64,000 nucleotides of DNA from the NCBI GenBank assembly GCA_041662125.1, contig JBAZTA010000003.1, forward strand, positions 264,962 through 328,961, in the 5' to 3' direction. This document shows positions 15,375-62,198 of the stretch, piece by piece; positions within the stretch are counted from its first letter, which is position 1, and each line of letters starts with the position of its first letter. The DNA comes from Candidatus Omnitrophota bacterium. GTDB taxonomy: Bacteria > Omnitrophota > Gorgyraeia > Gygaellales > Profunditerraquicolaceae. The translations under genes were made by a program, and so were the position numbers. The notes beneath the pieces were generated by a model, which had not been told where the DNA came from, did not search any database, and worked only from the letters and a program-made list of their open reading frames with translations.

Positions 15375-15390
15375 GAATTTTAACCTTTCA

Positions 15391-16787: not shown

Positions 16788-16799
16788 GGCATCATATTT

Positions 16800-18559: not shown

Positions 18560-18568
18560 TTTATGGAC

Positions 18569-19342: not shown

Positions 19343-19345
19343 TAC

Positions 19346-20248: not shown

Positions 20249-20263
20249 AATAAAGAATAATGC

Positions 20264-21580: not shown

Positions 21581-21597
21581 AATTAACTCCGGGTATT

Positions 21598-22635: not shown

Positions 22636-22667
22636 ACCTCAAATTTTAAATTAAAATTATTAAATAC

Positions 22668-23825: not shown

Positions 23826-23826
23826 A

Positions 23827-26362: not shown

Positions 26363-26372
26363 AACACCTTTT

Positions 26373-28329: not shown

Positions 28330-28341
28330 ATCTTTTGTGCT

Positions 28342-29280
28342 TCACCCCAGCCCTAACTGACGCATCACCTTCGGATGGTCGATTTCAAACTGATCGGCAT
28401 GAGGACGTAAACACGCATCATCTTTTGTGCGAGTCACTAGTACGACATTACCAGGATTGATTACCTGTTGGGCCTCAACCGCCAGATGCAGCCAGGAACC
28501 GTTCACACTTTTTGAATCATCAAGCACCAGAAGTTTCTTGGTACGCCGGACGTTGTTTAAAATCGTACTCCAATTGACCGGAAGCATGGCATTGACAGAA
28601 AAAAGCGTTGCGTCAAGACCATGTTTTTTTAGGTCATGGTAAAGCAAGAGCCCCTGCGGAAAGGAAAAGTTAAAACAGGCAATCGTCAGGCCACTGCCAT
28701 GGGAATATTGGAATATTTCGGCGTTTTCATCACAGGAAACACCCTCAGTTGTTTCCAAAACCTCCTGGCGGCATAGGCGCTGACTGATACCGATAATACG
28801 AAAACCGGGAGCAATGAGATGTTTACTCAAAATGAATTCCGCGTCAGCTTTATTCGTGATCGCATACCCGGGAATACGGGCAATGGAACAAAAATCAGCA
28901 AAATTATTCAAAGAGGATTGCGGCCCTTCATAGCCGCTATCAACAACGACATTGACTATAGTAAAAGAACTTCGAGCCTTCCTGCCCCTGACCAAGTTAT
29001 AGGTATTCACAAGCTGGTCGATACCCAGGAGCAGGAAATCCTGCTGTTTCATGAAAAATATTGATGAAACCCCGTTCAGCATTAAACCAAACCCCGTCCC
29101 CACAAGGGTATTTTCGCAATTAGGGGTATTCAAAACAAACTGGCCGTCTTGATTTTTGAGGCCTTTGGTCAGGCCTCCGATACAGCTTCCGGCGGCGATA
29201 TTTTGCCCAAACATGACTAATGGCTTAATTTCAGAAACTCGCTGCCGGATCAATCCATTGATGTGCGTAATATAATTCAT
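28342..29280 (-). CDS. Thiamin-diphosphate-dependent E1 component beta-subunit-like protein (transketolase-like Pyr/C-terminal domains)
   Basis: 312 aa. N-terminal region aligns in pattern with pyruvate/acetoin dehydrogenase E1-beta ('...FGQNIAAGSCIGGLTKGL...NTPNCENTLVGTGFGLMLNG'). ATGA-coupled to the E1-alpha-like gene. Confidence 0.65.
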   Translation of the reverse strand: MNYITHINGLIRQRVSEIKPLVMFGQNIAAGSCIGGLTKGLKNQDGQFVLNTPNCENTLVGTGFGLMLNGVSSIFFMKQQDFLLLGIDQLVNTYNLVRGRKARSSFTIVNVVVDSGYEGPQSSLNNFADFCSIARIPGYAITNKADAEFILSKHLIAPGFRIIGISQRLCRQEVLETTEGVSCDENAEIFQYSHGSGLTIACFNFSFPQGLLLYHDLKKHGLDATLFSVNAMLPVNWSTILNNVRRTKKLLVLDDSKSVNGSWLHLAVEAQQVINPGNVVLVTRTKDDACLRPHADQFEIDHPKVMRQLGLG

Positions 29281-30206
29281 CCAAGCTCCTTGCGTACGTC
29301 CGCCAGGACGTTTTTCGCCAGCGTCTTTAGAAAATCATTTTCAAAATGTTTAGTCAAAACATATACGGGATCTCCCTCTGTCTCCTCAATGACCGGCCAA
29401 TCAGATAATTCTACCGTGGGAGCTGCCCCCGCATGATAATTAATATATTTTCCTTCAGGATACTCATCGGTCTTCATACGCCAGTCACCAAGGGTGCGAA
29501 GGGAAACTTCAATGATTACCGGAGTTTTTTCAGCCAGTGCTTTTGCGCGCGCTTTCTCCAGCAGCGGGATATATTCAAAAACGTCATTTCCTTTAATTAA
29601 TTCATATGGTATTTTAAAAGCAGAGGCAAAACGATCGAGCGCTATATCGCATCTGCGCTCATGGATCTCTGTTGCCAAGGACCAATTATTGTTCTCGACA
29701 ATAATCAATGCCGCAGTAGCATATGTCTTCATCATCAGTAAGCTCTCTTGGAAAACCCCTTCTTCAATAGCCCCATCACCGATGACAACGATAGCCACAC
29801 CTTTTGTTTTCTTAACGGTGTTTCCTAAGGCTACACCGGTAGCAACAGCCATTTGGTTCCCCAGGATACTTGAGGTATACAAAACTCTTTTCTCCTCATT
29901 GTAAAGGTTCATGCATCCCAATTGGCCGCCAGCCTCTCCTGAATCAAGGCATAAGTATTCAGCGATCTTTTGTTTTAATGAAGGGCTGAGCGCCAAATTA
30001 TAATGGATATTCCGGTGCGTCAATAATAACCAGTCGTTTTCTTTCATTATAGAAGCCAGCGCTACCGCTATAGCCTCATGCCCTAATGCCAAGTGAACCG
30101 GGATTTTAAATTGTTTTTGTTTATTTCCCTGGTTTACCAGCATCTGGCAGAACCGAAGACGCAAGACTTCCCGAGCATTTTTTTTATTATCTTTTTTAGT
30201 AGGCAT
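29277..30206 (-). CDS. Thiamin-diphosphate-dependent E1 component alpha-subunit-like protein
   Basis: 309 aa. 'GHEAIAVALASI' (GQEA-like). ThDP-binding 'GDGAIEEGVFQESL...ENNNWS'. Confidence 0.7.
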   Translation of the reverse strand: MPTKKDNKKNAREVLRLRFCQMLVNQGNKQKQFKIPVHLALGHEAIAVALASIMKENDWLLLTHRNIHYNLALSPSLKQKIAEYLCLDSGEAGGQLGCMNLYNEEKRVLYTSSILGNQMAVATGVALGNTVKKTKGVAIVVIGDGAIEEGVFQESLLMMKTYATAALIIVENNNWSLATEIHERRCDIALDRFASAFKIPYELIKGNDVFEYIPLLEKARAKALAEKTPVIIEVSLRTLGDWRMKTDEYPEGKYINYHAGAAPTVELSDWPVIEETEGDPVYVLTKHFENDFLKTLAKNVLADVRKELG

Positions 30207-30213
30207 AGGTTTT

Positions 30214-31110
30214 TTATTTTTTATTACGTTTTAACCCTAAAAAATCGCTCACTGATTGAAGGCCAACCGTAAGCCCAATTGAAGGAGAAAACTTAAGCAG
30301 GCGTTTTGCTTTTTCATCGCTGACAATCCGCACGCTTACCTGTTGCGGAGTTTTTTCTACAACACGGGGGTTGCGAGCAAGCAACTTTTTTGCTGTTTCG
30401 ATACAATCACCAAGGCTAACTAGTTCCTGCCCCTGAACATTAATGATCTCAAAGCCCTTCAGGCCGATCGAAGCGATTACCGCAGCCGCAATATCCGTTA
30501 CATGAATAAAACGCCGCCCTGTTTTCAGAGATCCGACTGACACCTCATCTTGAGTCGCAACCGTATTTAAAAGTGATTCGACAGCTGACCAGTTATCTTT
30601 TCGCGGCCCATAGACAATACCAAAACGTAATATCGTAACCGGGCAGAATCCACGCAGATACTTCTGGCGAAGGTTAGCTTCGCTGACTAACTTCGAGAGA
30701 GCGTATTCAGAGCTCAAACGCGCGATATCAATCACATCATCTTCTTTTTTTGCCACACCATCTTCAAAACGGTCATAGACCCATTCAGAAGAAGCAAAAA
30801 TAAATTGTTTAGCTCCTTTTGCCTTTGCCGCATCCATAAGATTAAGCGTGCCCATGACATTAACATCAAAACAGGTATACGCCTTATCCTTACAATCCGC
30901 GTCGCGCGATATTGCTGCTAAATGCACTACAGCATCAACGCCCTCAGGTATGTTTTCCGCGATTTTTCCCGAACGGATATCCGCGACAGAACATCCTGCT
31001 TGAGCTGTATCAACTAAATCTACTCCAACGATCTCAATACCTTGAGCGCGCGCAAGACGTAAAACTTCTTTCCCGATAAAACTTCCACAACCAGTTACAA
31101 AGATTTTCAT
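30214..31110 (-). CDS. NAD-dependent epimerase/dehydratase-family protein
   Basis: 298 aa. 'IFVTGCGSFIGKEVLRLA'. 'YALSKLVSE' YxxxK. Confidence 0.7.
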   Translation of the reverse strand: MKIFVTGCGSFIGKEVLRLARAQGIEIVGVDLVDTAQAGCSVADIRSGKIAENIPEGVDAVVHLAAISRDADCKDKAYTCFDVNVMGTLNLMDAAKAKGAKQFIFASSEWVYDRFEDGVAKKEDDVIDIARLSSEYALSKLVSEANLRQKYLRGFCPVTILRFGIVYGPRKDNWSAVESLLNTVATQDEVSVGSLKTGRRFIHVTDIAAAVIASIGLKGFEIINVQGQELVSLGDCIETAKKLLARNPRVVEKTPQQVSVRIVSDEKAKRLLKFSPSIGLTVGLQSVSDFLGLKRNKK

Positions 31111-31139: not shown

Positions 31140-32231
31140 CTACTTTTTAACGCTTTCAAATAATCGATCCCACTGCAAAAGATACTGTTCTTGGCTATAC
31201 TCGGTTTCTGCGATTTTAAGGCCGGCAAGGCCTGCAGCCTTTCTTGCATCCGCGCCAAGGATCAACTTTTCCAATTTTTCATACCAGTCCTGGTTATTCT
31301 TGCAATATAACGGCATCCCGATTTTCTCCATGATGCGCGTGTACGTTGGTATAGCAGAAACAACGCAGGGCATACCCATTCTCCAGAAAAACAATAATTT
31401 GTTTTCCGGTTTACCGCGCATAAGCGGATCAGCGGTGTCCAGAGGAATAACAGCAATATCGCATCCGGTTATCAGGCGGGAAACGTCTTGCTTATTCCAC
31501 TGATAGAGATACACCAAAGAATCATTACCGCTTACCGTATTGGCATGATACTCTGAGCCAAAAATGCGCTGCAGCTGTTTAACCATGGAGACCTTTTTAA
31601 AACGATTCATGTATCGGCCATATTCCAGGTCGGTAATGACATATAAAGACAACGGGTATTTCGCCTTGAGTTGTATCAATACATCTTTTATCCCCGCCAA
31701 TGCTGCCGCATTCTCAGGCCGGCCTTCCCAAACAAGTTTTATCTTTTCCGGTTGCGCGTAATCATTTTTAACGCGGCTTGCGATCTTTTGATGGAATTCC
31801 AAGATAACATGGACATTCCGGCAATATTCCTGAATATCGTGCTTCTGTTCGAGAGTAGAACACATAACCGCGTCGGCGCGCCTGCACATGTCTTTAATGG
31901 CATCAGCGTAATTCAGCCGTAACGACCGGTGTTCTCCGACGCAGAATTTGGCAAAACCCCGCAAAGCTCCTTTGAGGTCAAAGCCGGATACCGCTAAATA
32001 GGAATCTACAAGCATATAAATAAGCTTGGTTTTTCTCCTTGGGAAACGGTTCCAAAAGCTTAAATCGACCTGAGGAGTCAAGACCACAATATCATATTCT
32101 TTATTCGGGTCAGCTATTTCAAATGGAATATTTCGTTTACGCGCGTAATAAACGAAATTCCTCAAGTCAAAAGGATGTAACGATGGGCTTCTGAATGGCA
32201 CATAACCAATGCTAAAACCGGATAAATCCAT
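31140..32231 (-). CDS. Hypothetical protein, possible GT-B-fold glycosyltransferase
   Basis: About 363 aa. C-terminal 'CDIAVIPLDTADPLMRGKPENKLLFFWRMGMPCVVSAIP' resembles the GT1/GT4 donor-binding region. Start uncertain; the ORF-track Met at 32309 would overlap hddA by 50 nt. Confidence 0.35.
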   Translation of the reverse strand: MDLSGFSIGYVPFRSPSLHPFDLRNFVYYARKRNIPFEIADPNKEYDIVVLTPQVDLSFWNRFPRRKTKLIYMLVDSYLAVSGFDLKGALRGFAKFCVGEHRSLRLNYADAIKDMCRRADAVMCSTLEQKHDIQEYCRNVHVILEFHQKIASRVKNDYAQPEKIKLVWEGRPENAAALAGIKDVLIQLKAKYPLSLYVITDLEYGRYMNRFKKVSMVKQLQRIFGSEYHANTVSGNDSLVYLYQWNKQDVSRLITGCDIAVIPLDTADPLMRGKPENKLLFFWRMGMPCVVSAIPTYTRIMEKIGMPLYCKNNQDWYEKLEKLILGADARKAAGLAGLKIAETEYSQEQYLLQWDRLFESVKK

Positions 32232-32259
32232 AGGTATTTTATCGCAGCAAGACTGCGCT

Positions 32260-33252
32260 TTAAACCGCCGATTGATCGTAATAGGTGATCCGCGTTCCTG
32301 CGTTCTCAAATTTAAAAGGAAGGCGATAGAGATTATTCAGGGCATGCGCAACTGCCGGCTGTTTTTTCGGTTCTACAAAAAACAGCAGAAATCCGCCTCC
32401 GCCTGCTCCAAGCAGTTTACCTCCCAGCGCCCCTGCCGATAAAGCACGGTTATAATACCCATCGATTTCCGAAGAAGAAATTTCATCGGTTATACTCTTT
32501 TTTAAAAGCCACCCTTTATGCAATAAACGCCCAAATTCGCGTATATCAGCGCCGCTGGAAAGGATCTCACGCAAAGGAGCGACTAAATCCCTCATTGCAA
32601 CAAGCACATGCCGCTTCTCTTGGGTCTTGGTGTTTTGAACAGATAAAATATCGTGCGCATCGCGCTTTATCGCGGTATAAAACAACATCAGATGATTTTC
32701 AATAGTTTCTTTTATTTCAGGGCGGTAAAAAACCGGGTCGACCGAAACAGTGCCGTCAGTATGAAAGGTAAAGACATTAAGGCTCCCATACGCGGCAGCG
32801 TAATGGTCTTGCTTGCCGATAGTGCGCTTCAAAACATCGATCTCAAGGCGTGAAGCCATTCCGGCTAAGACGCCTTTGGTTACCATTTTCCCTTTTAATG
32901 CAAAAAGCGCATGCAAGAGTCCTACGGCGAAAGAACTCGAAGACCCTAAGCCGGTATTAGCAGGTATATCGGCAAACGTGGAAACTTCAAGCGGAATATC
33001 TAAATCCATCATCTTCAAGGCTTCACGTACGATCGGATGTTCGATATCTTCAATCTTATCCTTAAACTCGACCTTACTCCAATTGATACGGAACTTATAT
33101 TCTGAAATAGCAGTCTGGCGTTTTACCGCCACATAAATATACTTATCAATACCGGTGCTGATGACCTGCCCTTCTTCTTTTAAATAAAACTCCGGCAAAT
33201 CGGTGCCACCGCCGGCAAAACTGATTCGAAAAGGAGTCCTTGATAGTATCAT
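32260..33252 (-). CDS. hddA: D-glycero-alpha-D-manno-heptose 7-phosphate kinase (GHMP kinase, HddA type)
   Basis: 330 aa. N-terminus 'MILSRTPFRISFAGGGTDLPEFY' matches the HddA/fucokinase-type GHMP kinases. ATP-binding 'NTGLGSSSSF'. Confidence 0.75.
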   Translation of the reverse strand: MILSRTPFRISFAGGGTDLPEFYLKEEGQVISTGIDKYIYVAVKRQTAISEYKFRINWSKVEFKDKIEDIEHPIVREALKMMDLDIPLEVSTFADIPANTGLGSSSSFAVGLLHALFALKGKMVTKGVLAGMASRLEIDVLKRTIGKQDHYAAAYGSLNVFTFHTDGTVSVDPVFYRPEIKETIENHLMLFYTAIKRDAHDILSVQNTKTQEKRHVLVAMRDLVAPLREILSSGADIREFGRLLHKGWLLKKSITDEISSSEIDGYYNRALSAGALGGKLLGAGGGGFLLFFVEPKKQPAVAHALNNLYRLPFKFENAGTRITYYDQSAV

Positions 33253-34469
33253 GCGCTCACCAAATTATCAAATGCTTCAGATACATTTTTAAATACATAC
33301 CGCGGCCTTTCATCCGGTTGGAGTTTTTTTAATTCATCGACTGGCCCCGTATAAACACAGGCGCATCCGGCCTGATACGCTGCCTGGCAGTCCCGGGAAT
33401 CATCTCCAATAAAAAAAGTTTTATCTAACCGAAAGAGCCATTTACGGGAGGCCTCAAAGAAAAGCCCTGGTTGGGGCTTACGGCAAAAACATTTCTCTTC
33501 CCAGTGGTGCGGGCAAACAAAAATATCTATAATAGGGATCCCTTGATCTTCAAGAGCCCGCTTCATTCGTTTATGAATATCATCAACTGCTTCCCGCGTT
33601 ACCAACCCTCGGGCTATGCCTGCCTGGTTAGAAATGACAATAAACGAATAACCGGCTAAACTGAGCTTTTTCATTCCTTCGACATTTTCCCGCATGAATG
33701 AAAAAGCATCCCATGAAGACACATATTCACCGCGCAAAGCCTTATTATTTATGACTCCATCACGGTCAATCAGCAGGATTTTCTTTGGGCATAAATACTT
33801 TTGGGCCACCTTCAAACGATCCATGTCTGAGATACTGTAATACGCATCCAAAACGAGCATCCCAGCCACTTCTCCCGCCGATACCAACTTGTTTATTATA
33901 TCAGAAAAACTTACCTTTGAACAAGTATAATATTTGAATATTTTCTTACTGACAACCATATACCCCAGCTCAACCAAATCCAATCCTTGAGCCTGGCGGG
34001 ACGTATCATAAGCTTCTACAATCCCGCATTCTCCCAATCGAATATTGCCGTTTTCTTTAGGCGTAACTATAAAACTAAGCAGCTTTTTGTGCTGATTGTA
34101 AAACGATACGCTTTTTTTTAAGCTAAAGACGAGGAAATTATCACTATACAAAAGTAAAAAATGTTCCTGGAGCATATCCCGGGCTTCAAAAAGCCTTCTG
34201 CCGGTCTCCCATTCTGCCGGCCCATGAGAATAGAGTATCCTCAATCCCAGTTTTTCTCCATCTCCGAAATAATTACGGATCTGCTCTCCCAAATACCCTG
34301 TCATCAAAAGAATTTCGCTAATACCGTTATCTTTAAGCTGCTCCAGAAGATACTGTAAAAAAGGAACGCCGTTAATCATGACCATCGGCTTAGGCATCGT
34401 GTCTGTTATCGGGCGTAACCGTACCCCTAATCCGCCGCAAAATATAGCCGCCTGCTTAGGAGAAACCAT
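33249..34469 (-). CDS. Bifunctional heptose-1-phosphate nucleotidyltransferase (HddC-like) / D,D-heptose 1,7-bisphosphate phosphatase (GmhB-like HAD) fusion
   Basis: 406 aa. N-terminal 'AAIFCGGLGVRLRPITDTMPKPMVMINGVPFLQYL' sugar-1-P nucleotidyltransferase. C-terminal 'ILLIDRDGVINN' HAD motif I. Confidence 0.7.
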   Translation of the reverse strand: MVSPKQAAIFCGGLGVRLRPITDTMPKPMVMINGVPFLQYLLEQLKDNGISEILLMTGYLGEQIRNYFGDGEKLGLRILYSHGPAEWETGRRLFEARDMLQEHFLLLYSDNFLVFSLKKSVSFYNQHKKLLSFIVTPKENGNIRLGECGIVEAYDTSRQAQGLDLVELGYMVVSKKIFKYYTCSKVSFSDIINKLVSAGEVAGMLVLDAYYSISDMDRLKVAQKYLCPKKILLIDRDGVINNKALRGEYVSSWDAFSFMRENVEGMKKLSLAGYSFIVISNQAGIARGLVTREAVDDIHKRMKRALEDQGIPIIDIFVCPHHWEEKCFCRKPQPGLFFEASRKWLFRLDKTFFIGDDSRDCQAAYQAGCACVYTGPVDELKKLQPDERPRYVFKNVSEAFDNLVSA

Positions 34470-35343
34470 GTTTTTTCCTTAATTCCTTGATTGTTTCTTT
34501 AATACCTTTTTCAAGCGGCATCAAAGGTTTCCAACTTGTTTTACCGCGCAAGCGTGAAACATCCGCCCAAAACCCGTCTTTACCATTACCATTTGTTTTC
34601 TCCGGTAATTCACCTTTGTAGCCTGCGGCCTGGGCAACATACTGGCAAACTCGGACAACCGGCGTTTGGACGCCTGAACCTATATTAAAAACACCGTTTA
34701 TGCCTTCAGCCTCAATCAAAGCCTTTATTGCCAGAGCTACATCAGAAACATGAATAAAATCACACACAGTGTTTGGATTCTTAACTACCGGTTCCTTCCC
34801 TTTTGCAAAAGCCGCATAACATAGGGGTATCAATGAAGTTTCTCTTTGTCCGGGGCCATAAACAAAAAACATCCTTCCCCAGATAAAATTAACATTCCGC
34901 TGACGTGATAAACTCTCCCCTACCATTCTTACACTTGTTTTAAAAGAAGCAAAGAGGCTTACTTCCTCAGGAATTTGATCCTCTTTTACAGGGCCGTTGA
35001 GATTTCCATACTCCCAACACGTACCCGCCGAGAAAATCTTTTTACACCCGTTTAAGGTGAGGTATTCAAACAACAAAGCGCTTATAGTAAAGTTTTCCAA
35101 ACAGCGTGCGAAAGAATAGTCAGGCAACCCTTTCCAGGCCAAATGACAACAAGCTTCAGGAGCAAAATCCAAAACAGATTTTCCCCAAGCCGAGATATCG
35201 GCCAAATCCGCCTTAAGAGAGGTGACTTTTCTATTGGGGATAGAGACTTCATTTGTGTCCAGCAAAAGCAGTTCATGGCGTGATAAAAGAGGGACAAGGT
35301 GTTTTCCGATAAATCCCGTTGCTCCCGTGATTAAAATACGCAT
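34456..35343 (-). CDS. NAD-dependent epimerase/dehydratase-family reductase (RmlD/GDP-fucose-synthase-like)
   Basis: 295 aa. 'ILITGATGFIGKHLVPLL'. Paralogous to 41669..42580 ('LAW...GTCxEYG'). Confidence 0.65.
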   Translation of the reverse strand: MRILITGATGFIGKHLVPLLSRHELLLLDTNEVSIPNRKVTSLKADLADISAWGKSVLDFAPEACCHLAWKGLPDYSFARCLENFTISALLFEYLTLNGCKKIFSAGTCWEYGNLNGPVKEDQIPEEVSLFASFKTSVRMVGESLSRQRNVNFIWGRMFFVYGPGQRETSLIPLCYAAFAKGKEPVVKNPNTVCDFIHVSDVALAIKALIEAEGINGVFNIGSGVQTPVVRVCQYVAQAAGYKGELPEKTNGNGKDGFWADVSRLRGKTSWKPLMPLEKGIKETIKELRKKHGFS

Positions 35344-35354
35344 AGATTATTCTC

Positions 35355-35915
35355 TTAAAAAGTATTTTTCGCTTTCGAAACTATCTGTGGGTCAAAATCA
35401 GGATAACTGCGGTCTTTTTCAGAAATAACACGGGGTTCCACAGGCCATGTAAACTTGAACATAGGATCATTATAACGCAATCCTTTATAGGCTTCTGGAA
35501 CATAATATTCAGACATGTAATACAAAATCGAGGTATCGTCTTTAAGCGTTAGATAACCATTCGCGCAGCCTGCAGGAAGGTGCAGGCTCACAGGCTCCTC
35601 TGCATTCAGCTCAACCGATATCCATTTTAGAAAGGTAGCCGAATCTGGCCTTAGGTCGACAATAATATCATAGATAGCGCCGGAAATGCAGAGCATGGTT
35701 TTATGCTCAGAATAGGGTTTAAGCTGATAATGCATGCCCCGCAAGGTATGCGACTTGCTGTTCTGGGAAACATTGGTCTGCAGGATCCTTGCTTCCAATC
35801 CGTTGCTCTCAAATTCTTTCTTGCAGAAATGCCTGAAGAACATACCCCGGCTATCTTTAAACGGCTCTGCTTCGATAAGAAAAACTCCCGGGATTTTTTG
35901 TTTATAAAATTTCAT
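35355..35915 (-). CDS. NDP-4-keto-6-deoxy-sugar 3,5-epimerase (RmlC family cupin)
   Basis: 186 aa. 'GVFLIEAEPFKDSRGMFFRHF' RmlC signature region. Confidence 0.75.
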   Translation of the reverse strand: MKFYKQKIPGVFLIEAEPFKDSRGMFFRHFCKKEFESNGLEARILQTNVSQNSKSHTLRGMHYQLKPYSEHKTMLCISGAIYDIIVDLRPDSATFLKWISVELNAEEPVSLHLPAGCANGYLTLKDDTSILYYMSEYYVPEAYKGLRYNDPMFKFTWPVEPRVISEKDRSYPDFDPQIVSKAKNTF

Positions 35916-35917
35916 AT

Positions 35918-37165
35918 TTAGAGTGAAATAGTGTACGGCTCATGAGGCAACGGTATAATGATCTTACCGTGAAAATGATACTTGTTCTTTAACAGTGCTA
36001 AAATTTCAGATTTAAAGTTCCATGCCAACAAAACAATTGTATCGGGCTTTAAAGCAAAGGCTTCTTGCGGGGAGACGATCAGAATATTTGTCCCTGCCGT
36101 ATAGGTATTATGCTTCAAGGGGTTCTGGTCAGCGATACAAACCAAATATTCATTATTGATCGCGCAATAATTAAGCAGTGTTGAGCTGCGTGCTGAAGCG
36201 CCATATCCAATGATAGTTTTTCCTGTTTTGAATTCTGCATCCAGCAATTTGGTTAATTTCTTACGATGTGCCAAGCAATCGCGCGCAAACGCCTTCCACA
36301 GTGTCAATGTATTTAACCCTATTTCTTTCTCACAGAGGATCTTTTGTTTCAAACCCTTTGAATGGGCTTTTTTCTTGTCGTCATGGGTAAAATAGACCAC
36401 CAAAGAACCGCCGCTGATCGGACTTTTCATGAGGTCATAAACCGCTAAACCATGCTGCCTGAGCAAAAACATAATGCTCTTGAGCGAAAAATAGAACAAA
36501 TGTTCATGATAAATAGAATCATACTGCAGGCCGTTTACAATCTCTTGAGCATAATGAAACTCTATCGCACCAACCCCCTCGCAGCCCAGGCAGCATTTTA
36601 TCCCTGCAATAACTTCATGGATTAAAGCAACATGAGGGATAACATTACGGGCAAAAACAAAATCTGCCGCGCCTTGGGTTGCAACAATCTTATGAGCGAC
36701 CGTTTCATTAAAGAATTCTGCCTGCGTCGGTATGCCCTGCTTTCGAGCAAGAGATGCGATATTCTCGGCAGGATCTATACCTTGAACCTTACAACCCTGT
36801 TCCCGGAATGCTTTTAAGAAGGTACCGTCATTACTGGCAATTTCCACAACAAAAGGTTTGTGTGATTTTAAGTGTTTTTTCGCCGCTTGGAAGAAAATAC
36901 CTGCATACTCCTTTGCAGTGGCAGATGTGCCGGTCACCCAAACATAGTGTTTAAACAAGAGCTCTGGATTAACGGTCTGGGTCAACTGAATAGTAGTACA
37001 ATGAGCGCATCGGCAAAGCGCAAGCGCAAATTTTGGCAGTTCTCTAGAAAGGTTCTTGCGAAGGGTGTTCGCAGGAGGCTGCGCGCCTAAATCAAGAAAT
37101 GTTTTGATCAAACCACTTTTACAGATACGGCAGCGCGTGATCGATTCCGATAACTTTTTTGGCAT
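35918..37165 (-). CDS. NDP-hexose C-methyltransferase (TylC3/NovU-type, zinc-ribbon + class I MTase + C-terminal domain)
   Basis: N-terminal 'CRICKSGLIKTFLDLGAQPPAN' matches the CxxC...LDLG.QP.AN start of the C-methyltransferase family. Start trimmed to 'MPKKLSE' to avoid overlap. Confidence 0.65.
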   Translation of the reverse strand: MPKKLSESITRCRICKSGLIKTFLDLGAQPPANTLRKNLSRELPKFALALCRCAHCTTIQLTQTVNPELLFKHYVWVTGTSATAKEYAGIFFQAAKKHLKSHKPFVVEIASNDGTFLKAFREQGCKVQGIDPAENIASLARKQGIPTQAEFFNETVAHKIVATQGAADFVFARNVIPHVALIHEVIAGIKCCLGCEGVGAIEFHYAQEIVNGLQYDSIYHEHLFYFSLKSIMFLLRQHGLAVYDLMKSPISGGSLVVYFTHDDKKKAHSKGLKQKILCEKEIGLNTLTLWKAFARDCLAHRKKLTKLLDAEFKTGKTIIGYGASARSSTLLNYCAINNEYLVCIADQNPLKHNTYTAGTNILIVSPQEAFALKPDTIVLLAWNFKSEILALLKNKYHFHGKIIIPLPHEPYTISL

Positions 37166-37169
37166 GCTT

Positions 37170-38222
37170 TTAGGCTTCTTCCTGATCTTCAATGCTATAT
37201 CGCAGCTCGTTATCAAGCTGGCGCGACTGAAGCATATACTCCAGCTGTTTTAAACGGTTAGTCATTCTACCCCTGAATTGATCTTCATTGAATTTAACTT
37301 TCTTGAAAAACTCAACCAGCTCTTCTCCGCCTCTGATTAAATCCCATTCAGGCTTAAAATAATCTTTCAAAACTGTCAATATCTTCTTAAAACTGACACG
37401 GTATGTCCGGGAATCTTTCCCGTGCTCGCCGGTAAAAATAAGTTTACTCCCCTTTACGGCCTTCTGCGCTGCTTCCCCAAGGTCTCTGACCGTAAAATTG
37501 CCGTTAGGGATACCGACATTAAATGATTGATTCGCAACCAGGTCTTTTGGCGCTTCTAACCCCGCGATAAAAGCACTTGAAACATCCCTGATATGCACCA
37601 CCGGCCTCCAGGGTGTTCCGTCGCTTTTAATCTCAATCTTACCCGTCGTGTAAGCACACCCTACCAGGCTGTTATAAACAATATCGCAGCGCAGCCGCGG
37701 GCTTGCCCCAAAGACAGTTGATGGACGAAAAGCAACAACTACAAAATCCCGGGTTCCCAGCTCCCGCAGCTTCAATTCAGCAAGCCATTTTGTTTTCGCA
37801 TAGACCGTAATAGGATTCTTTTCACTTGTATCTTCATCCAGCTCGCCTTCTACATTTGAGACCCCATACATACTCTGGGATGATGAATATATAAAGCGTT
37901 TAACTCCCGCCTTTTTTGCTAAAGCAGCTAAGGAAACCGTCGCATGAAAATTTATTTCTTCAGTCAAACGCGGTTCCAACGCGCCTAAGGGGTCGTTAGA
38001 AAGCCCGGCTAAATGGATAACAGCATCAAAACCTTCAACATCCCCCAACACAATATCCCGAATATCTTTCCTGATCATGGTATATGCATGCTTTGCCGGA
38101 AACAGGCTGTTTTGGGCGTAATAATCAACATCATACCCAACAATGTCGTAGCCCTTCTCGATCAACATTCCTGTTAATACACTCCCAATATATCCTCGGT
38201 CACCCGTAACCAGAATTTTCAC
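37170..38222 (-). CDS. NAD-dependent epimerase/dehydratase-family protein (GalE/WcaG-like)
   Basis: 350 aa. GTG start with SD 'GAGGT'. 'ILVTGDRGYIGSVLTGML'. 'YAKTKWLAE'. Paralog of 53447..54454. Confidence 0.7.
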   Translation of the reverse strand: MKILVTGDRGYIGSVLTGMLIEKGYDIVGYDVDYYAQNSLFPAKHAYTMIRKDIRDIVLGDVEGFDAVIHLAGLSNDPLGALEPRLTEEINFHATVSLAALAKKAGVKRFIYSSSQSMYGVSNVEGELDEDTSEKNPITVYAKTKWLAELKLRELGTRDFVVVAFRPSTVFGASPRLRCDIVYNSLVGCAYTTGKIEIKSDGTPWRPVVHIRDVSSAFIAGLEAPKDLVANQSFNVGIPNGNFTVRDLGEAAQKAVKGSKLIFTGEHGKDSRTYRVSFKKILTVLKDYFKPEWDLIRGGEELVEFFKKVKFNEDQFRGRMTNRLKQLEYMLQSRQLDNELRYSIEDQEEA

Positions 38223-38278: not shown

Positions 38279-38307
38279 ATTATATACCTGCCTTCCGGTA
38301 AAGTCAA
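38279..38307 (-). promoter_or_regulatory. Near-consensus sigma70-type promoter TTGACT-N17-TATAAT (minus strand)
   Basis: Read from the reverse complement of the 129-bp gap: 'ggTTGACTttaccggaaggcaggtaTATAATttt'. The -10 element sits about 57 nt upstream of the GTG of the epimerase at 38222. Confidence 0.5.
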
Positions 38308-38351: not shown

Positions 38352-39506
38352 TTATACTGATTCTTTTACGTTTTGCTTATTGATCCAGTCGGCGAATTCT
38401 TTTATATTCGAAATATCTTTCAAAAGGATCGCCCCCTGCCAGAGGCTTTGCACTTTAGACTTCTTTGCGCCTGCCAAGAGAAGAAATAAGCGCTGCCAAC
38501 TCTGCGTATCAAAAAATATCGTCAATACGCACAACCAGTCAAAAAAAGACAATTTTCCCATCCAGCGGATAATATCACCCCCAGAAGCAGCCCGGGAACG
38601 ATACTGCAGATACCAGGAATAAACCTGCCGACGCACGTAATTTGCCCGGCTGATCTCAACAGCACTCAAAAGCTCAGGATAATTAGTCTTGAGAAGTTGC
38701 AGCCACACATACATGCAATTATTAAGCTCAATCCCCGCAAGCCTGCCTTTGAAATCAGAATTTATCCCTAAATATTTCTTGCCTTCATCCTGTTTGTCGC
38801 TATACACGTAATGGCCAAAGGATTTAGGAGAAACCCCGACTACCAGCATTTTTTCAGGAAGAAATACCCAGGAATTAACGGTCAACAATAAAGAATTTAA
38901 CGCGTAATGGTCAGGAAATGGCGGTTGAAAAGCCCCACCCTTGATCGTATTCATTGCTTTGCGCGACATTAATGTCGTCTGCATATTCAGAGGGATACGA
39001 TTACGGAAAGAGAACATGTCACGGACAATTGAAAGCCTTTTTTCCGTTAAAATTAATCCTTCTCTTGTGAAATCCGGCCCAAAATTAAAAAAAGGATCTT
39101 TATAAAAACTATTGGCGTTTCCGCTAATTGAATGAGGCGCTACATAACTATACGCGTTATAGGTGACACAGTCAGGATCATGATACGCATGTAAGACTTC
39201 TGCCATGCGGGAAAAATATCCCGGAAGCAGGCAATCATCATCACCCATCATCAATACATAATCGCCGCGGCTCGACTGGAGCGCACGATTCCAATTCTCG
39301 GTCACACACACCGGTTCTTCTAACGTCACCACTTTCAGGCGCTTATCAGAGATAAAAGAATGAATAACTTTTTTAGTTTCATCGGTATTGGCATTATCAG
39401 AAACGACTAACTCCATATCCTGGTACGGCTCATCTAAGATAGAATGCATGCAATGCGAGAGGAAACGCCCTCCGTTACGAGTAGGCAGCAGCACAGAAAA
39501 TTTCAC
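38352..39506 (-). CDS. Glycosyltransferase family 2
   Basis: 384 aa. 'SVLLPTRNGGRFLSHCMHSIL' and 'VVSDNANTDETKKV' (DxD region) of the GT2 family. Confidence 0.75.
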   Translation of the reverse strand: MKFSVLLPTRNGGRFLSHCMHSILDEPYQDMELVVSDNANTDETKKVIHSFISDKRLKVVTLEEPVCVTENWNRALQSSRGDYVLMMGDDDCLLPGYFSRMAEVLHAYHDPDCVTYNAYSYVAPHSISGNANSFYKDPFFNFGPDFTREGLILTEKRLSIVRDMFSFRNRIPLNMQTTLMSRKAMNTIKGGAFQPPFPDHYALNSLLLTVNSWVFLPEKMLVVGVSPKSFGHYVYSDKQDEGKKYLGINSDFKGRLAGIELNNCMYVWLQLLKTNYPELLSAVEISRANYVRRQVYSWYLQYRSRAASGGDIIRWMGKLSFFDWLCVLTIFFDTQSWQRLFLLLAGAKKSKVQSLWQGAILLKDISNIKEFADWINKQNVKESV

Positions 39507-40756
39507 TTCTTATTCTCCTTATCTTTAAGATTCAGATATATTTCTTCAACATAACCGCTCCTGACCCATGAAGCATTTCTCCCAAGGCGTTTAAAACCCC
39601 CTACCTGAGCAACAACTTCAGGCACCCATACCTGCGGTTTTCCATGCACGATACTATAAGCTTCATGATTATAACTGAAAAATATGCCGCGCAGGCGCTT
39701 TTTCGCAAACGAGATATACGCGCTTACGATTTCTTCCGACATCTCCGGCATGCTGTTTTCATTCACCAACACATCGATATCCTGCTTTATTGCCGGCTCA
39801 AAAGCAACATTCGGCAGGATAGATATACAAGCGCTTGATTGGTCAATTTCTCCGTATAACTTCACCTGCCTTACGGTGAACGCCTGCGATAAAAAATATC
39901 CCTGCAACACGTTTATTAACGGCAAATCAATAATAGTATACGTTCTGATCTTAAGGTCCTTAAGTTTCAACAACCAATACGCTAATCCTCCAAAACCAGC
40001 GCCAATTTCCAGCAGATTGAGCTCATTGCCTGCTGTAACATTCAAATGATCCCGGGCAGCCTGACTGATACGCAGTGCGACATAAAGATGTTCAGGATGT
40101 TCCATAGTTATTAACGAACTATTCGCTTTAACGCCGTAGGGACTGCCTATATCAGGGAATCCTATTGAGATGCCCAAACAGGCTTCGATTTGAGAGACAA
40201 CTGCTGTAATCCCGTCCTTTAAACCATACGCTCTAAGCCCTTGTTGAGTAGATTCAGCGCGTACCAAACCCAAGTATTCCGCCAATGAAACCACATTGTC
40301 TTGATATTTCAATGACCAGATTTTACTTCCTATCCGGCTCTTGGAATGTTCCACTAAACTCCCCGAAGCTAAACCATACACAAAATCCTCCCGGAACATC
40401 CTGGATAAAAGCAAAGCTAATTCGTGCGCGTTTCCTCTCTCAACAACAGTCATAAGCTTCCCGGAATAACGCTTAAGGCCTTCTGACCAGATCAGGCTCG
40501 TATTGTTTTCTGGCGTTGATCTCTCAGCGGTAGCTTTACGATACGCGGCGATCAAACGTTCACATAAAACCACGTCTTCTTGAGATACCTCTTTAGCCTT
40601 ATTGTATATGATTTTCAACGTAGGGACCTTTTTTAAATTAAAAACCCAAAGATAGTGCTTCAAATATTTAAGCAGATCATAATTTATAAGCGAAACCCCC
40701 ATCGCCCGGGAGAGCCTGCTGTTGAGGATTTTTTTTATACTGTTCTTTAAAAACAT
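39503..40756 (-). CDS. Putative SAM-dependent (sugar O-)methyltransferase, large LIC12133-like type
   Basis: 417 aa. Motif I 'LLEIGAGFGGLAYWLL' in the C-terminal half. Long N-terminal domain of unknown function. Confidence 0.45.
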   Translation of the reverse strand: MFLKNSIKKILNSRLSRAMGVSLINYDLLKYLKHYLWVFNLKKVPTLKIIYNKAKEVSQEDVVLCERLIAAYRKATAERSTPENNTSLIWSEGLKRYSGKLMTVVERGNAHELALLLSRMFREDFVYGLASGSLVEHSKSRIGSKIWSLKYQDNVVSLAEYLGLVRAESTQQGLRAYGLKDGITAVVSQIEACLGISIGFPDIGSPYGVKANSSLITMEHPEHLYVALRISQAARDHLNVTAGNELNLLEIGAGFGGLAYWLLKLKDLKIRTYTIIDLPLINVLQGYFLSQAFTVRQVKLYGEIDQSSACISILPNVAFEPAIKQDIDVLVNENSMPEMSEEIVSAYISFAKKRLRGIFFSYNHEAYSIVHGKPQVWVPEVVAQVGGFKRLGRNASWVRSGYVEEIYLNLKDKENKK

Positions 40757-42615: not shown

Positions 42616-45270
42616 TCAATCGGCGTCATCGTTTAACAAAAAAGCATATTTTCTTAAAAAATCCCTGCCGATCCTTGATAGCGAACCATATGAATAATGC
42701 GTAGGATTCATCAACGCTTTAAAACGGCTCTGCAGCAGTTCATCTTCTTTTCCATAGGTAAGCAAACCGTCTTTTTTATCTAACATTTCCAAGGCCAATT
42801 CACGGATATCAGCCGGAGTATTTTCGTGAGGGCTGGCCCCGGCCCGGACAAATAAATGGTCAAACAAAAAATGGCCAAGGGGTGATTGAAGAACCTCTTT
42901 GAAACGTAAATAGCGTTTTTCTTTTTCTGACCATATAAGTTTCGGGATTCCGATATCATCGGCCCCGTACGGCAGGGATCCGCAGAGATGCGCGTAATTA
43001 GCGATTGCCGCAGAAACACCAAAAATACTGGCAACGTGGTATAAACCGGAATCACTTCCCAGAAAAAATTTACAACTGGCGCAAAGAAAAACATCAAGCT
43101 GTTGGCTTTTATTTTTTGAATGCGCATAATCGATAACATGTTCCTGGTAAGGCAGCGGCTTCATGGTCGCATCACCCATACGCACAACCCATCCTCCCCT
43201 CTTCACAATAGCCTCAACCGCTAAAAGATAATTATTGATATCGGCGTTACGCAGCGACTGGTTAACCTGGCCAAGATACCCATCTTCCCGGCAATGCAGG
43301 CAGACAAACCATGCACCCTGCGGCATACCTTGTTCCTCAAGAAAGGCCTGCCCGCGTTTACGGTCAGTTTCGCTTAATTTCAGAAGCGGCGGACGGCTAG
43401 CGAATTTCTTTTGAATTTCAGGAAAATACGCTGCCCCTTCAGAAAAAGCAAAACGATACGTTGCATACCCGGTCAGTTGATTACGGGCCAGCGGCTCCAA
43501 TAACGAACAAAGCCAGGCAGAACGAATAATGCGAAGATATTTTTCCCAATATCCTAAAAGATGAGCGTTAGAAACCTTACCAGGATGCGCAAGAAGGATC
43601 GTATTGTATTGAGGCCTCATACCCAGTATACCCTCTTTCAGATAACCATCGATCTCAATACAAAGATGCCCAATCGCCCGCTCAGACAAATAAATAAATC
43701 TTACATTAAACAGCCTGCAGATCGGATAGCAAACGATACCTGCAGCCTGACAAAATACTTTATAAATAATCTGCTGCGCGGCTTTTCCCACACAATATAA
43801 AATCCCTTTTTCTTTTAATCTACGGATAAAATATTCATTCCGCAGCGATAATTCCAGCTGTTCAAGGTTATCCTTATGCCACAACCTTCGGCAGCGCTGC
43901 CAGGTCAATACGACAAAAGGAAAAACAAGCAGATTAACTGCTAAAAAACTCCAGGACATCCCCTCTACCCCATAACGACGCCCTAAAACAACCGTGCAGA
44001 AACCGGTAACAATACCAAAAGTTAATGATATCCATAAAAGCGGTTCTCTCTTATGCGCTCTTAAATAGGCGGAAAGCGGCAAGGTCAATGTTGAGATACC
44101 TTGTGCAGCCAGAAAAACAGCTACAGGTAACGGAGATAAAATACGCGATGAGAATGGGTGGCCCGCCTGGTAAAGCATAAATACCAAGAACCACACCATT
44201 ACAGAAACACCCGCGGTTATAACCGTAAAGATCCTCGTTGTCCTCCAAAAAAGCTCATCAAGTTTTTTATAATCTTTTCGGGCGATCAAAATCCCGAATT
44301 GGGGGACCCGGGGAGATAACCACGCTGCCGCGATACCGGCAATAGCGCCGATAACACTCCAGGTCATGCCAAATTGTCCAGCAATAACCGGCCCGTGATA
44401 CCGAAAAAGTATTGGAGTAAAAAGAGAAAAAACAAAATATCCGCTGATCCAACTCAGCGCTATCCTCCATTGCATAGGAAGGATCTCTTTGCGCCAGTCA
44501 ATACGGCATGCGGATGGCTTGGTAAAAAGAAGTGTTTTAATAAATCCGCTGTATCGATATTTAAAGAATATAACGGAACATATAATAATTGAAGCGACAG
44601 AAAGCGAAGCTGCCCACAATCGCGCGCCGGCAAGTATAGCGATCCAAACAGTTAAACTTGAAACTATTCCCTGCAGGAACCGGTATGTGTAAACCGAGGC
44701 AACTTGATTACAGCCCTCCAAGATTGACCACAGAGGGATGAAACAAACAATAATGCCGGTAAGAAAACACAGCGTAAACCAAGGTAATGGCCAATCCACA
44801 CTGGAAATTGCTGAATGCGAGAAAAAAACATATCCTCCCAGGCCTAAACCAAAAGCAATGATACATCCGCCAACCAGATACCAGCGGCTCGTAATATGCG
44901 CTAAACTGATTAACCGTGATAAAGCAGCACTATCTCCCGTAATACCCCGGTCTTTATCTAAACGTAATTTCGACCACTCGTGACTGGCGAATTGGATAAT
45001 AACGGTCCCCAGCCCTAATTCCACAAAAATTTGCAACGCTAACAAACTGCTGAAAGTATAATAATATCCCTGGTATTCAGGAGAAAAGCGAAGCGTTATT
45101 AATAACGCCGTCAACGGACCGGCAATAATACTCCACCCTCTGCTTAAAATTCCAAAAAAAACAGGGCGGTCAACCTCAAACTTTGACAAAAGATTGATTA
45201 TCCGGTCTTTAAACAAAACTGCGATCGATTTCTTTTTATAGAGGGCCGATTCCATCAGTTTAGATTTCAT
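42616..45270 (-). CDS. Fusion protein: N-terminal Wzx/MOP-like polytopic membrane domain + C-terminal soluble transferase-like domain
   Basis: 884 aa. Residues about 1-480 contain at least 12 hydrophobic helices. Residues about 480-884 are hydrophilic with conserved Cys/His and no canonical motif ('...GAWFVCLHCREDGYLG...FLGSDSGLYHV...'). Confidence 0.5.
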   Translation of the reverse strand: MKSKLMESALYKKKSIAVLFKDRIINLLSKFEVDRPVFFGILSRGWSIIAGPLTALLITLRFSPEYQGYYYTFSSLLALQIFVELGLGTVIIQFASHEWSKLRLDKDRGITGDSAALSRLISLAHITSRWYLVGGCIIAFGLGLGGYVFFSHSAISSVDWPLPWFTLCFLTGIIVCFIPLWSILEGCNQVASVYTYRFLQGIVSSLTVWIAILAGARLWAASLSVASIIICSVIFFKYRYSGFIKTLLFTKPSACRIDWRKEILPMQWRIALSWISGYFVFSLFTPILFRYHGPVIAGQFGMTWSVIGAIAGIAAAWLSPRVPQFGILIARKDYKKLDELFWRTTRIFTVITAGVSVMVWFLVFMLYQAGHPFSSRILSPLPVAVFLAAQGISTLTLPLSAYLRAHKREPLLWISLTFGIVTGFCTVVLGRRYGVEGMSWSFLAVNLLVFPFVVLTWQRCRRLWHKDNLEQLELSLRNEYFIRRLKEKGILYCVGKAAQQIIYKVFCQAAGIVCYPICRLFNVRFIYLSERAIGHLCIEIDGYLKEGILGMRPQYNTILLAHPGKVSNAHLLGYWEKYLRIIRSAWLCSLLEPLARNQLTGYATYRFAFSEGAAYFPEIQKKFASRPPLLKLSETDRKRGQAFLEEQGMPQGAWFVCLHCREDGYLGQVNQSLRNADINNYLLAVEAIVKRGGWVVRMGDATMKPLPYQEHVIDYAHSKNKSQQLDVFLCASCKFFLGSDSGLYHVASIFGVSAAIANYAHLCGSLPYGADDIGIPKLIWSEKEKRYLRFKEVLQSPLGHFLFDHLFVRAGASPHENTPADIRELALEMLDKKDGLLTYGKEDELLQSRFKALMNPTHYSYGSLSRIGRDFLRKYAFLLNDDAD

Positions 45271-52455: not shown

Positions 52456-52470
52456 ATATATTCCTCTTGG

Positions 52471-59770: not shown

Positions 59771-59798
59771 ATTATACCGCTCCAAGCAAACAAATCAA
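59771..59798 (-). promoter_or_regulatory. Candidate sigma70-type promoter TTGATT-N16-TATAAT (minus strand) upstream of rfbF
   Basis: Reverse complement of the gap reads 'cTTGATTtgtttgcttggagcggTATAATataac'. Located about 160 nt upstream of the rfbF start. A GAAACT-aacg-AGTTTC hairpin lies in the leader. Confidence 0.35.
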
Positions 59799-62193: not shown

Positions 62194-62198
62194 AAGTT

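Follow-up and report, generated by a model that had tools for sequence, protein, structure and literature searches.

Two predicted TylC3-type sugar C-methyltransferases in a surface-glycan island of Candidatus Omnitrophota, one of them in a conserved, probably heptose-linked gene cassette

Few of the bacterial glycans characterised so far contain C-branched sugars, and the C-methyltransferases that make some of them have been studied almost only in the antibiotic deoxythymidine diphosphate (dTDP)-deoxyhexose pathways of actinomycetes. The described enzymes include TcaB9 (D-tetronitrose), KijD1 (kijanimicin), MtmC (D-mycarose of mithramycin) and TylC3/EryBIII/AviG1, all of them dTDP-sugar 3-C-methyltransferases. 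Here, we describe two genes of this family, MT1 and MT2, in a 64-kb stretch of contig JBAZTA010000003.1 from a Candidatus Omnitrophota metagenome-assembled genome; this stretch, at its full length, is referred to below as the window. An initial annotation of the window had placed the family mostly in antibiotic deoxysugar pathways, a description that reflects the characterised members only, since thousands of homologues are found in environmental glycan loci.

MT1 and MT2 share with the actinomycete enzymes a three-domain organisation, homology over the full length (205-265 bits), a Cys4 zinc site and a conserved Tyr/His/Tyr/Glu/His set, and would be expected to carry out the same S-adenosylmethionine (SAM)-dependent methylation alpha to a 4-keto group. 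They differ from them in sequence (each is 31-36% identical to TcaB9 and MtmC), in their uncultured Omnitrophota host, and in belonging to a surface-glycan locus rather than to a polyketide or aminoglycoside cluster. The probable substrates also differ, being a cytidine diphosphate (CDP)-linked sugar for MT2 and a nucleoside diphosphate (NDP)-heptose for MT1, as opposed to the dTDP-2,6-dideoxy or 6-deoxy hexoses of the actinomycetes.

In Coxiella burnetii, CBU_0691 is a predicted TylCIII-like C-methyltransferase for virenose (6-deoxy-3-C-methylgulose) of the lipopolysaccharide (PMC3539893, PMC5843353). Compared by description, it resembles the Omnitrophota proteins as a family member for a C-methyl sugar of a Gram-negative surface polysaccharide, assigned in silico and with an uncertain nucleotide carrier. 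In contrast, the 6-deoxyhexose of Coxiella comes via Gmd or RmlB, whereas the MT1 cassette is without a dehydratase and contains heptose-supply genes. 3-C-methyl-rhamnose is found in Burkholderia andropogonis and Azorhizobium caulinodans (PMC7203242). 3-C-methyl-mannose occurs in Helicobacter pylori, and CDP-vinelose in Azotobacter vinelandii. The C-methyl sugars named here, from virenose to vinelose, are all hexoses or 6-deoxyhexoses, and for the last three the C-methyltransferase genes are mostly undefined. To our knowledge, no CDP-linked or heptose-linked member of the family has been characterised, and a C-methyl-branched heptose has been reported from no glycan or natural product.

A further point of comparison is the capsular guanosine diphosphate (GDP)-heptose route of Campylobacter jejuni, which is fed by GmhA, HddA, GmhB and HddC and continues through the Cj1427 dehydrogenase, a Cj1430-type C3/C5 epimerase and a Cj1428-type C4 reductase. 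The oxidation by Cj1427 turns GDP-D-glycero-α-D-manno-heptose into its 4-keto derivative and uses α-ketoglutarate as co-substrate (PMC10680097, PMC7949155). MT1 is similarly surrounded by predicted heptose-nucleotide supply genes and by genes for a candidate non-dehydrating short-chain dehydrogenase/reductase (SDR), a putative cupin epimerase and a candidate SDR reductase. Unlike the C. jejuni route, the MT1 cassette has a C-methyltransferase inserted between dehydrogenase and epimerase, a cupin nearer to the dTDP-sugar enzyme RmlC, and a nucleotidyltransferase fused to GmhB; the C. jejuni pathway paper mentions no methyltransferase or C-methyl sugar (PMC10680097).

We consider it fairly probable that MT1 and MT2 are functional SAM-dependent C-methyltransferases that act on two different sugars, MT2 on a CDP-hexose and MT1 on an NDP-4-keto-heptose. 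All of the approximately 60 genes of the window, and hence all features given below, are on the minus strand. The two intervals in which the initial annotation had recognised proteins of about 415 amino acids (aa) are full of stops in plus-strand translation, and are open on the minus strand. MT1 (35918..37165; 415 aa) extends from an ATG at 37165, 4 nucleotides (nt) past the stop of the upstream gene, to a stop at 35918, with the mechanical open reading frame reaching a TTG at 37216. For MT2 (57571..58818; 415 aa), the ATG at 58818 is a likelier start than the alternative TTG at 58821 (416 aa), because homologues begin M-x-C-R-F-C.

All three Pfam domains expected of the family were identified in both proteins: PF08421 (Methyltransf_13) at 58.5 bits in MT1 and 76.3 in MT2, PF13489 at 44.7 and 34.5, and PF08484 (Methyltransf_14) at 147.7 and 218, against gathering cut-offs of 31.3 bits for Methyltransf_13 and 23.5 for Methyltransf_14. 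The architecture of Cys4 zinc domain, class I SAM domain and Methyltransf_14 is complete, with the full profiles covered, so that neither copy lacks the C-terminal domain on which the initial annotation had made the assignment depend; further class I methyltransferase models are also matched by both. Among solved structures, and over approximately residues 2-408, MT1 matches MtmC (4rv9, 236 bits), TcaB9 (3ndi, 223) and 5t64 (205), and MT2 matches MtmC (264.6 bits), 5t64 (230) and TcaB9 (223.5), with E = 1e-60 to 1e-77. We take entry 5t64 to be KijD1.

The N-terminal motifs quoted in the initial annotation were recovered as CRIC...LDLGAQPPAN in MT1 and CRFC...VSLGESALSN in MT2. The zinc cysteines (C12/C15/C53/C56 in MT1, C3/C6/C46/C49 in MT2) align with those of TcaB9, and in each subfamily no fewer than 118 of 120 homologues keep them. 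For the active site we used the positions Tyr76, His181, Tyr222, Glu224 and His225, which we take to be those defined by mutagenesis of TcaB9. When the TcaB9 chain was rebuilt from the alignment and its offset of +2 in the PDB chain checked, these positions fell exactly on Y, H, Y, E and H, and their counterparts are Y74/H178/Y219/E221/H222 in MT1 and Y67/H172/Y213/E215/H216 in MT2. All nine positions, four cysteines and five active-site residues, are essentially invariant in 240 homologues, and the SAM motif VEIASNDG is found in both proteins. No NCBIfam model matches MT1 or MT2, and public databases name these proteins generically, as 'class I SAM-dependent methyltransferase' (NCBI) or UbiG-like (JGI), because NCBIfam is without a model for the C-methyltransferase family. 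The neighbouring genes are of the kind that make NDP-4-keto sugars, a Cj1427-like SDR and a nucleotidyltransferase–GmhB fusion for MT1, and rfbF together with RfbG elsewhere in the window for MT2. On these sequence features, we assign MT1 and MT2 as genuine members of the TylC3/TcaB9-type family of sugar C-methyltransferases with a class I core, in agreement with the initial annotation.

The two copies are paralogous, as had been claimed, with 33% identity over 408 aa in pairwise alignment (E = 5e-78) and 32% in the family comparison. Mean identity is 60% among MT1 homologues, 70% among MT2 homologues and 33% between the groups. Because MT1 and MT2 are about as distant from one another as from the actinomycete enzymes, and identity within each group is high, they are not the product of a recent duplication; their sequences place them as ancient paralogues representing two subfamilies. 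A tblastn search of the window found exactly these two copies and no third. At E ≤ 1e-20, MT1 has more than 3,500 homologues and MT2 at least 8,000 (8,000 of the 8,000 candidates scored), and a metagenome scan yielded at least 597 confirmed relatives of the family. The MT1 subfamily is distinguished by 35 subfamily-specific positions, including the stretch after the Tyr76 equivalent (YVWVTGT as against YPYHSSG) and the GYGAxAKGxT motif (GYGASARSST); residues 76-80, 251 and 324-328 of MT1 are among these positions. One MT1 homologue (P0020) carries the shared JGI name 'NovU/D-mycarose 3-C-methyltransferase'.

Two metagenome loci also hold more than one family member: L047 (Ga0268276_1000639) has one MT1-like and one MT2-like gene together with a reversed-HldE heptose module, and three genes, all MT2-like, are found in L073 (Ga0180433_10009034). 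Multiple C-methyltransferases in one glycan locus are thus a recurring feature, and the pair in the window is not unique.

We identified a conserved gene cassette around MT1 by comparing the open reading frames of related loci with the window proteins, giving eleven contexts from five or more phyla. These are the window, a Planctomycetales locus (L002), Rheinheimera texasensis DSM 17496 (L003, NZ_KL544006.1), Lentisphaerae (L004), Gemmatimonadetes (L005), a second Omnitrophota locus (L010), a Nitrospina contig, labelled from the NCBI name of its C-methyltransferase, and the loci L011, L092, L093 and the P0118 contig. In all eleven, an SDR of about 350 aa is followed by the C-methyltransferase, a cupin of about 180 aa, a fusion of a nucleotidyltransferase and a HAD-type phosphatase (406-419 aa) and a GHMP kinase (312-342 aa); an SDR of about 290 aa stands between cupin and fusion in nine.

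The first gene of the MT1 unit, SDR-350 (37170..38222), is a candidate Cj1427-like non-dehydrating NDP-sugar C4-dehydrogenase. Its top PDB match is 6vo6/6vo8 (128.6 bits over the full length; runner-up 81 bits), its motif is SSQSMYG without the Asp/Glu pair of 4,6-dehydratases, and its orthologue lies directly upstream of the MT1-type gene in 11/11 contexts. On the other side of MT1 is the RmlC-like cupin already noted in the initial annotation (35355..35915; PF00908, 191 bits), a predicted NDP-4-keto-sugar 3,5- (or 3- or 5-) epimerase. SDR-295 (34456..35343; Pfam Epimerase), the SDR present in nine of the eleven cassettes, is a candidate C4-ketoreductase for the last step of the pathway, with weak PDB matches to GalE (73 bits) and to GDP-6-deoxy-D-lyxo-4-hexulose reductase 2pk3 (68 bits).

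The two remaining genes point to heptose. The fusion protein (33249..34469; Pfam NTP_transferase and HAD; 11/11 cassettes) combines an HddC/MurU-like nucleotidyltransferase with a GmhB-type heptose-1,7-bisphosphate phosphatase, matching NCBIfam GmhB (NF006506, 145.7 bits) and HddC (90.5 bits), both below cut-off, and GmhB structures at 72-96 bits. The GHMP kinase (32260..33252; 11/11 cassettes) is HddA-like, that is, of the D-glycero-D-manno-heptose 7-phosphate kinase type; HddA is its top NCBIfam match (152 bits), and it matches the heptose-7-phosphate kinase structures 4usm/3k85/4n3o at 129-134 bits as against 60 bits for fucokinase. The only GmhA-like SIS isomerase of the window (54461..55039; Pfam SIS_2; NCBIfam phosphoheptose isomerases 86-92 bits, below cut-offs) belongs to the MT2 unit and could act for both of the heptose modules described here. 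Its homologues are next to the MT1 cassette in L004, L005, L093 and the P0118 contig; in L003 the homologue is found about 4 kb upstream of the cassette. GmhA, HddA, GmhB and HddC activities are therefore all represented as best matches, each below its NCBIfam equivalog cut-off.

Because the nucleotidyltransferase–GmhB fusion and the heptose-kinase-like gene accompany MT1-type genes in 11/11 contexts, the substrate of MT1 is probably an NDP-heptose and not a hexose. The initial annotation had taken both copies for NDP-hexose enzymes, which agrees with the CDP-hexose context of MT2 and is probably incorrect for MT1. In its simplest reading, the MT1 cassette is a single operon for building, C4-oxidising, C-methylating, epimerising and reducing an NDP-heptose, in which C6 is not deoxygenated. 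GmhA, the HddA-like kinase and the GmhB–nucleotidyltransferase fusion would together turn sedoheptulose-7-phosphate into NDP-D-glycero-D-manno-heptose, which SDR-350 would then oxidise at C4. C-methylation by MT1 and epimerisation by the cupin would follow, in either order, and reduction by SDR-295 would give a C-methyl-branched heptose.

More broadly, the MT1 subfamily may mark a widespread, uncharacterised seven-gene pathway to a nucleotide-activated C-methyl-branched heptose, a proposal that in our judgement stands evenly balanced. The seven genes are GmhA, the Cj1427-like C4-dehydrogenase, the C-methyltransferase, the cupin epimerase, the reductase, the nucleotidyltransferase–GmhB fusion and the heptose kinase, and the spread covers Omnitrophota, Planctomycetota, Lentisphaerota, Gemmatimonadota, Nitrospinota and the cultured gammaproteobacterium Rheinheimera texasensis.

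The surroundings of MT2 are different. Its unit begins with rfbF (58837..59610), named as the neighbour of MT2 in the initial annotation, which encodes a glucose-1-phosphate cytidylyltransferase (TIGR02623 equivalog, 427.3 bits against a cut-off of 300). MT2 is followed by a GalE-like SDR of the 4-epimerase/oxidoreductase type (56576..57574), whose start overlaps the MT2 stop and which matches 4-epimerase structures at 165-171 bits; 4-epimerase or 4-ketoreductase of the methylated CDP-sugar are its candidate roles. Its place in the gene order also suggested the CDP-glucose 4,6-dehydratase, an assignment that was rejected, with a TIGR02622 score of 53 against 278 bits, a motif (ASSSCYG) without the acid/base pair, and 4-epimerases as its PDB neighbours. 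The true CDP-glucose 4,6-dehydratase, RfbG (470..1600), passes the TIGR02622 equivalog cut-off (447.7 bits against 278) and has the motif ITSDKCY. It lies 57 kb from rfbF and MT2, is 45% identical to the RfbG beside an MT2-type gene in locus L008, and is the likely source of CDP-4-keto-6-deoxy-D-glucose.

To place MT2 among its relatives, metagenome contigs were scanned with an alignment of MT2 relatives and 80 loci were kept, of which 22 were well flanked (at least 3 kb either side); neighbours were counted within 4 kb. rfbF was found near the MT2-type gene in 20 of the 22 and an RmlC-like cupin in 15; canonical CDP-glucose 4,6-dehydratases occurred in nine, Cj1427-like SDRs in eight, and heptose nucleotidyltransferase–GmhB or kinase genes in none (0/22). 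The recurrent cassettes are rfbF–RfbG–methyltransferase–RmlC–reductase (for example in L008) and rfbF–Cj1427-like SDR–methyltransferase–RmlC, with the order rfbF–MT2–GalE-like SDR of the window being less common. A CDP-linked 6-deoxy-3-C-methyl sugar exists in CDP-vinelose and would match the first of these cassettes; our literature search gave no match for 'vinelose'. A CDP-hexose is thus the favoured substrate of MT2. RfbF and RfbG would provide CDP-4-keto-6-deoxy-D-glucose, its most likely substrate, which would be methylated by MT2 and then processed by the GalE-like SDR.

We additionally noted that a DegT-family aminotransferase gene (1649..2794) adjoins RfbG in the window, and that a homologue directly follows rfbF–RfbG–MT2-type–RmlC in several metagenome loci. 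This hints that such loci make a CDP-4-amino-4,6-dideoxy-3-C-methyl-hexose. The MT2 unit of the window also encodes an HldE-like bifunctional protein (55045..56571) of reversed order, with an N-terminal cytidylyl/adenylyltransferase and a C-terminal PfkB kinase, and contains a Cj1427-like SDR gene in addition to that of the GmhA-like isomerase. In close relatives (the P0123 contig, L006 and L047), MT2 units contain GmhA, the reversed HldE-like protein, a dehydratase-like SDR and a Cj1427-like SDR. This gene set gives the MT2 unit a heptose-nucleotide module of its own, separate from the one around MT1.

The chemistry proposed for both enzymes follows from knowledge of the family and from the conserved residues. 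A dehydrogenase or dehydratase would set the 4-keto group, a base would remove the C3 proton, and the resulting enolate would attack the methyl group of SAM, with C3 as the predicted site, as in all solved relatives. An epimerase and a ketoreductase would then fix the final configuration. TylCIII-type methylation is described as inverting C3 (as cited in PMC3539893). C5 methylation, or a secondary ketoreductase activity like that of MtmC, may be alternatives.

Several observations weigh against this interpretation. All the substrate assignments are made by gene association, and so by guilt by association. The heptose-type proteins fall short of their NCBIfam equivalog cut-offs (HddA 152 against 600, GmhB 146 against 178, GmhA 92 against approximately 210-276), the GmhA-like gene lies outside the MT1 unit, 17 kb away, and the cupin beside MT1 scores higher with dTDP RmlC (133 bits) than with GDP-4-keto-heptose epimerases of C. 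jejuni (54-61 bits) and just passes TIGR01221 (156.4 bits against 155.75). A partial RmlB is encoded at the window edge (63307..63975). The nearest structure to SDR-350, 6vo6/6vo8, is presumably Cj1427, an identity for which our literature search gave no confirmation. Cj1427-like SDRs beside rfbF also partner MT2-type genes (33-45% identity), so that such an SDR does not by itself imply a heptose. The likeness of SDR-350 to Cj1427, at first taken as evidence for a heptose, was downgraded for this reason, and the heptose assignment is carried instead by the set of kinase, phosphatase, isomerase and nucleotidyltransferase. MT2, for its part, has no adjacent dehydratase or cupin, and the second heptose module in its unit may leave room for a heptose as the substrate of MT2. 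Finally, a C-methyl heptose was not found in our literature search, which fits novelty, yet leaves the proposal without precedent.

Some of these observations would be explained if MT1 were an ordinary dTDP-4-keto-6-deoxy-D-glucose C-methyltransferase, an explanation that we regard as unlikely. MT1 would then work with RmlA/RmlB, the adjacent RmlC and an RmlD-like reductase to give a dTDP-3-C-methyl-6-deoxy-L-hexose of the 3-C-methyl-rhamnose type, both enzymes would be of the 6-deoxyhexose type, and the heptose genes would make another residue of the glycan. The cupin passes the rmlC equivalog cut-off and has dTDP RmlCs as its nearest solved relatives, the partial gene at 63307..63975 encodes a dTDP-glucose 4,6-dehydratase, 3-C-methyl-rhamnose is a known O-antigen sugar (PMC7203242), and the characterised members of the family all use dTDP-6-deoxy or 2,6-dideoxy sugars (PMC3539893). 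However, an RmlA/RmlB pair neighbours the heptose cassette in 0/10 other MT1-type contexts, whereas the nucleotidyltransferase–GmhB fusion and the heptose-kinase-like gene are present in all of them, in several phyla and despite differing flanks. The cassette is headed by a non-dehydrating Cj1427-like SDR and not by a 4,6-dehydratase, and the RmlB of the window is 26 kb off, in another putative unit.

It is very unlikely that one copy is mainly an MtmC-like 4-ketoreductase, is non-catalytic, or is an O- or N-methyltransferase. Among solved structures, both proteins come closest to MtmC, a homologue of which is reported to have 4-ketoreductase activity too (PMC3539893); public annotation is generic or UbiG-like, and no obvious dedicated RmlD-type reductase is found near MT2. 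Against this, the zinc ligands, the SAM motif and the five TcaB9 active-site residues are kept in both copies and throughout their subfamilies, the C-terminal Methyltransf_14 scores are high, and several ordinary class I methyltransferases elsewhere in the locus could carry out O- or N-methylation.

Least likely of all is that MT1 and MT2 act in succession on one nucleotide sugar (for example at C3 and C5) to give a doubly C-methylated residue: both alpha carbons of a 4-keto sugar are methylatable in principle, C5-methylating relatives of the NovU type exist (compare the JGI name on P0020), and L047 has one gene of each type and L073 several, but in the window 20 kb separates the two genes, which belong to different putative units that have a nucleotidyltransferase each and differ in their activation modules (heptose for MT1, CDP-glucose for MT2), and MT1-type genes occur without MT2-type genes in 10/10 other contexts, as do MT2-type genes without MT1-type in 21 of the 22 loci. 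Thus, of the two outcomes proposed in the initial annotation, two distinct C-methyl sugars fit the context and are the supported reading, whereas double methylation of a single sugar is disfavoured by the separate units, by the separate modules and by the tendency of each subfamily to occur alone.

The organisation of the window is consistent with two separate transcription units, 20 kb apart, in each of which the C-methyltransferase is gene number 2. Only four intergenic gaps in the whole window exceed 60 nt, and two of these lie directly before rfbF (371 nt) and before SDR-350 (129 nt); the genes of the MT1 unit are overlapping or tightly packed. In the gap upstream of SDR-350 we found a promoter-like site (38279..38307; TTGACT-17-TATAAT, 11/12), a possible start of the MT1 unit and the top sigma-70-like match in a 20-kb scan, and in the gap upstream of rfbF a second (59771..59798; TTGATT-16-TATAAT, 10/12), a possible start of the MT2 unit. 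Both are hints, being matches to the sigma-70 consensus in a phylum whose promoters are uncharacterised, and promoter-like sites showed no overall enrichment. GC skew is uniformly negative across the window and GC content is 37-45%. Rfam and tRNA scans of the whole window gave no match.

Wzx, GT2/GT4 glycosyltransferases and PseB/PseC/PseI equivalogs indicate that the locus is a surface-glycan island; it belongs to a Candidatus Omnitrophota metagenome-assembled genome, is at least 64 kb long and runs past both window ends. Two other origins were considered and rejected. An antibiotic cluster is contradicted by Wzx, GT2/GT4 and the full PseB/PseC/PseI set, with no polyketide synthase or non-ribosomal peptide synthetase seen among the approximately 60 open reading frames scanned. 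A Coxiella-like O-antigen (virenose/dihydrohydroxystreptose), hinted at by the C-methyltransferases, by E1α/β-like genes and by a GC content of about 43%, is contradicted by identical proteins in a Candidatus Omnitrophota metagenome-assembled genome, to one of which MT1 is 100% identical.

Other genes of the island also suggest carbon–carbon bond formation. Two E1α/E1β-like thiamine diphosphate (ThDP) enzyme pairs are encoded at 51391..53436 and 28342..30206, and an acetolactate-synthase/YerE-like ThDP enzyme at 47028..48812. In yersiniose-type and antibiotic pathways, keto sugars receive two-carbon branches from such enzymes, so that more than one kind of C-branched sugar may be made at this locus. 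The pair at 28342..30206 recurs beside MT1 cassettes in L004, L011, L093 and the P0118 contig. We additionally found that the interval flanked by homologues of 31140..32309 and 26373..27413 holds one of two different modules. Here, the window (27400..31110) has SDR298–E1α-like–E1β-like–SDR309, and L002 (5923..8013), L010 (16125..18236) and L092 (13104..15191) have a B12-binding radical SAM gene of about 700 aa (58-68% mutual identity). Downstream of the heptose cassette, two different kinds of C–C bond formation thus occupy one and the same place. One or other of these swap-in modules, the ThDP pair or the radical SAM protein, follows the cassette in many loci, and may branch the heptose further.

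A complete pseudaminic-acid-type pathway was identified at 14313..24828, with PseB (23827..24828), PseC (22668..23840) and PseI (14313..15428) all passing NCBIfam equivalog cut-offs. The same region encodes a CMP-sugar synthetase-like protein (18569..19342), formyltransferase-like proteins, WbqC, a PIG-L deacetylase, a class III aminotransferase and an aldo-keto reductase, which suggests that the nonulosonic acid is unusually decorated. The window also contains four radical SAM genes (2776..4275, 9349..10737, 12283..13302 and 13299..14300), of which two encode B12-binding radical SAM proteins of class B, candidates for the methylation of unactivated carbons, and the other two, in tandem, encode radical SAM/SPASM proteins. 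There may thus be further C-methylation, or other unusual sugar chemistry, beyond the two TylC3-type enzymes.

Several large open reading frames (42616..45270, 39503..40756, 31140..32309, 24917..26455, 8182..9318 and 17516..18559) match no Pfam family, and 31140..32309, the only one of these submitted to NCBIfam, has no match there either. One 884-aa protein of this group is 80% identical in the Omnitrophota locus L010, and conserved counterparts of the 389-aa protein that follows the heptose kinase are encoded in L002, L010 and L092; polymerases, ligases or novel glycosyltransferases may be among these proteins. Just upstream of the rfbF–MT2 unit (59982..62229) are a NodU/CmcH-type carbamoyltransferase (621 aa) and then a small SxtJ-like protein, making O-carbamoylation of a glycan sugar likely.

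For the window itself, these results mainly provide a better annotation of a single-strand glycan island of more than 64 kb, and do not define a new kind of system. We regard the finding as moderately interesting, consisting of the correct annotation of enzymes of a known family together with a testable extension, the conserved heptose cassette. For the family, the results indicate that TylC3-type enzymes are very common in environmental glycan loci and fall into at least two subfamilies defined by context, one coupled to CDP-glucose and one to heptose. In these loci, the 4-keto group would often be supplied by a Cj1427-like non-dehydrating dehydrogenase in place of the 4,6-dehydratase, which predicts C-methyl sugars that keep O-6. 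If the heptose assignment of MT1 is true, it would represent a new class of monosaccharide and would extend TylC3-type C-methylation from dTDP-deoxyhexoses to heptoses, and this could be tested in the cultured Rheinheimera texasensis DSM 17496.

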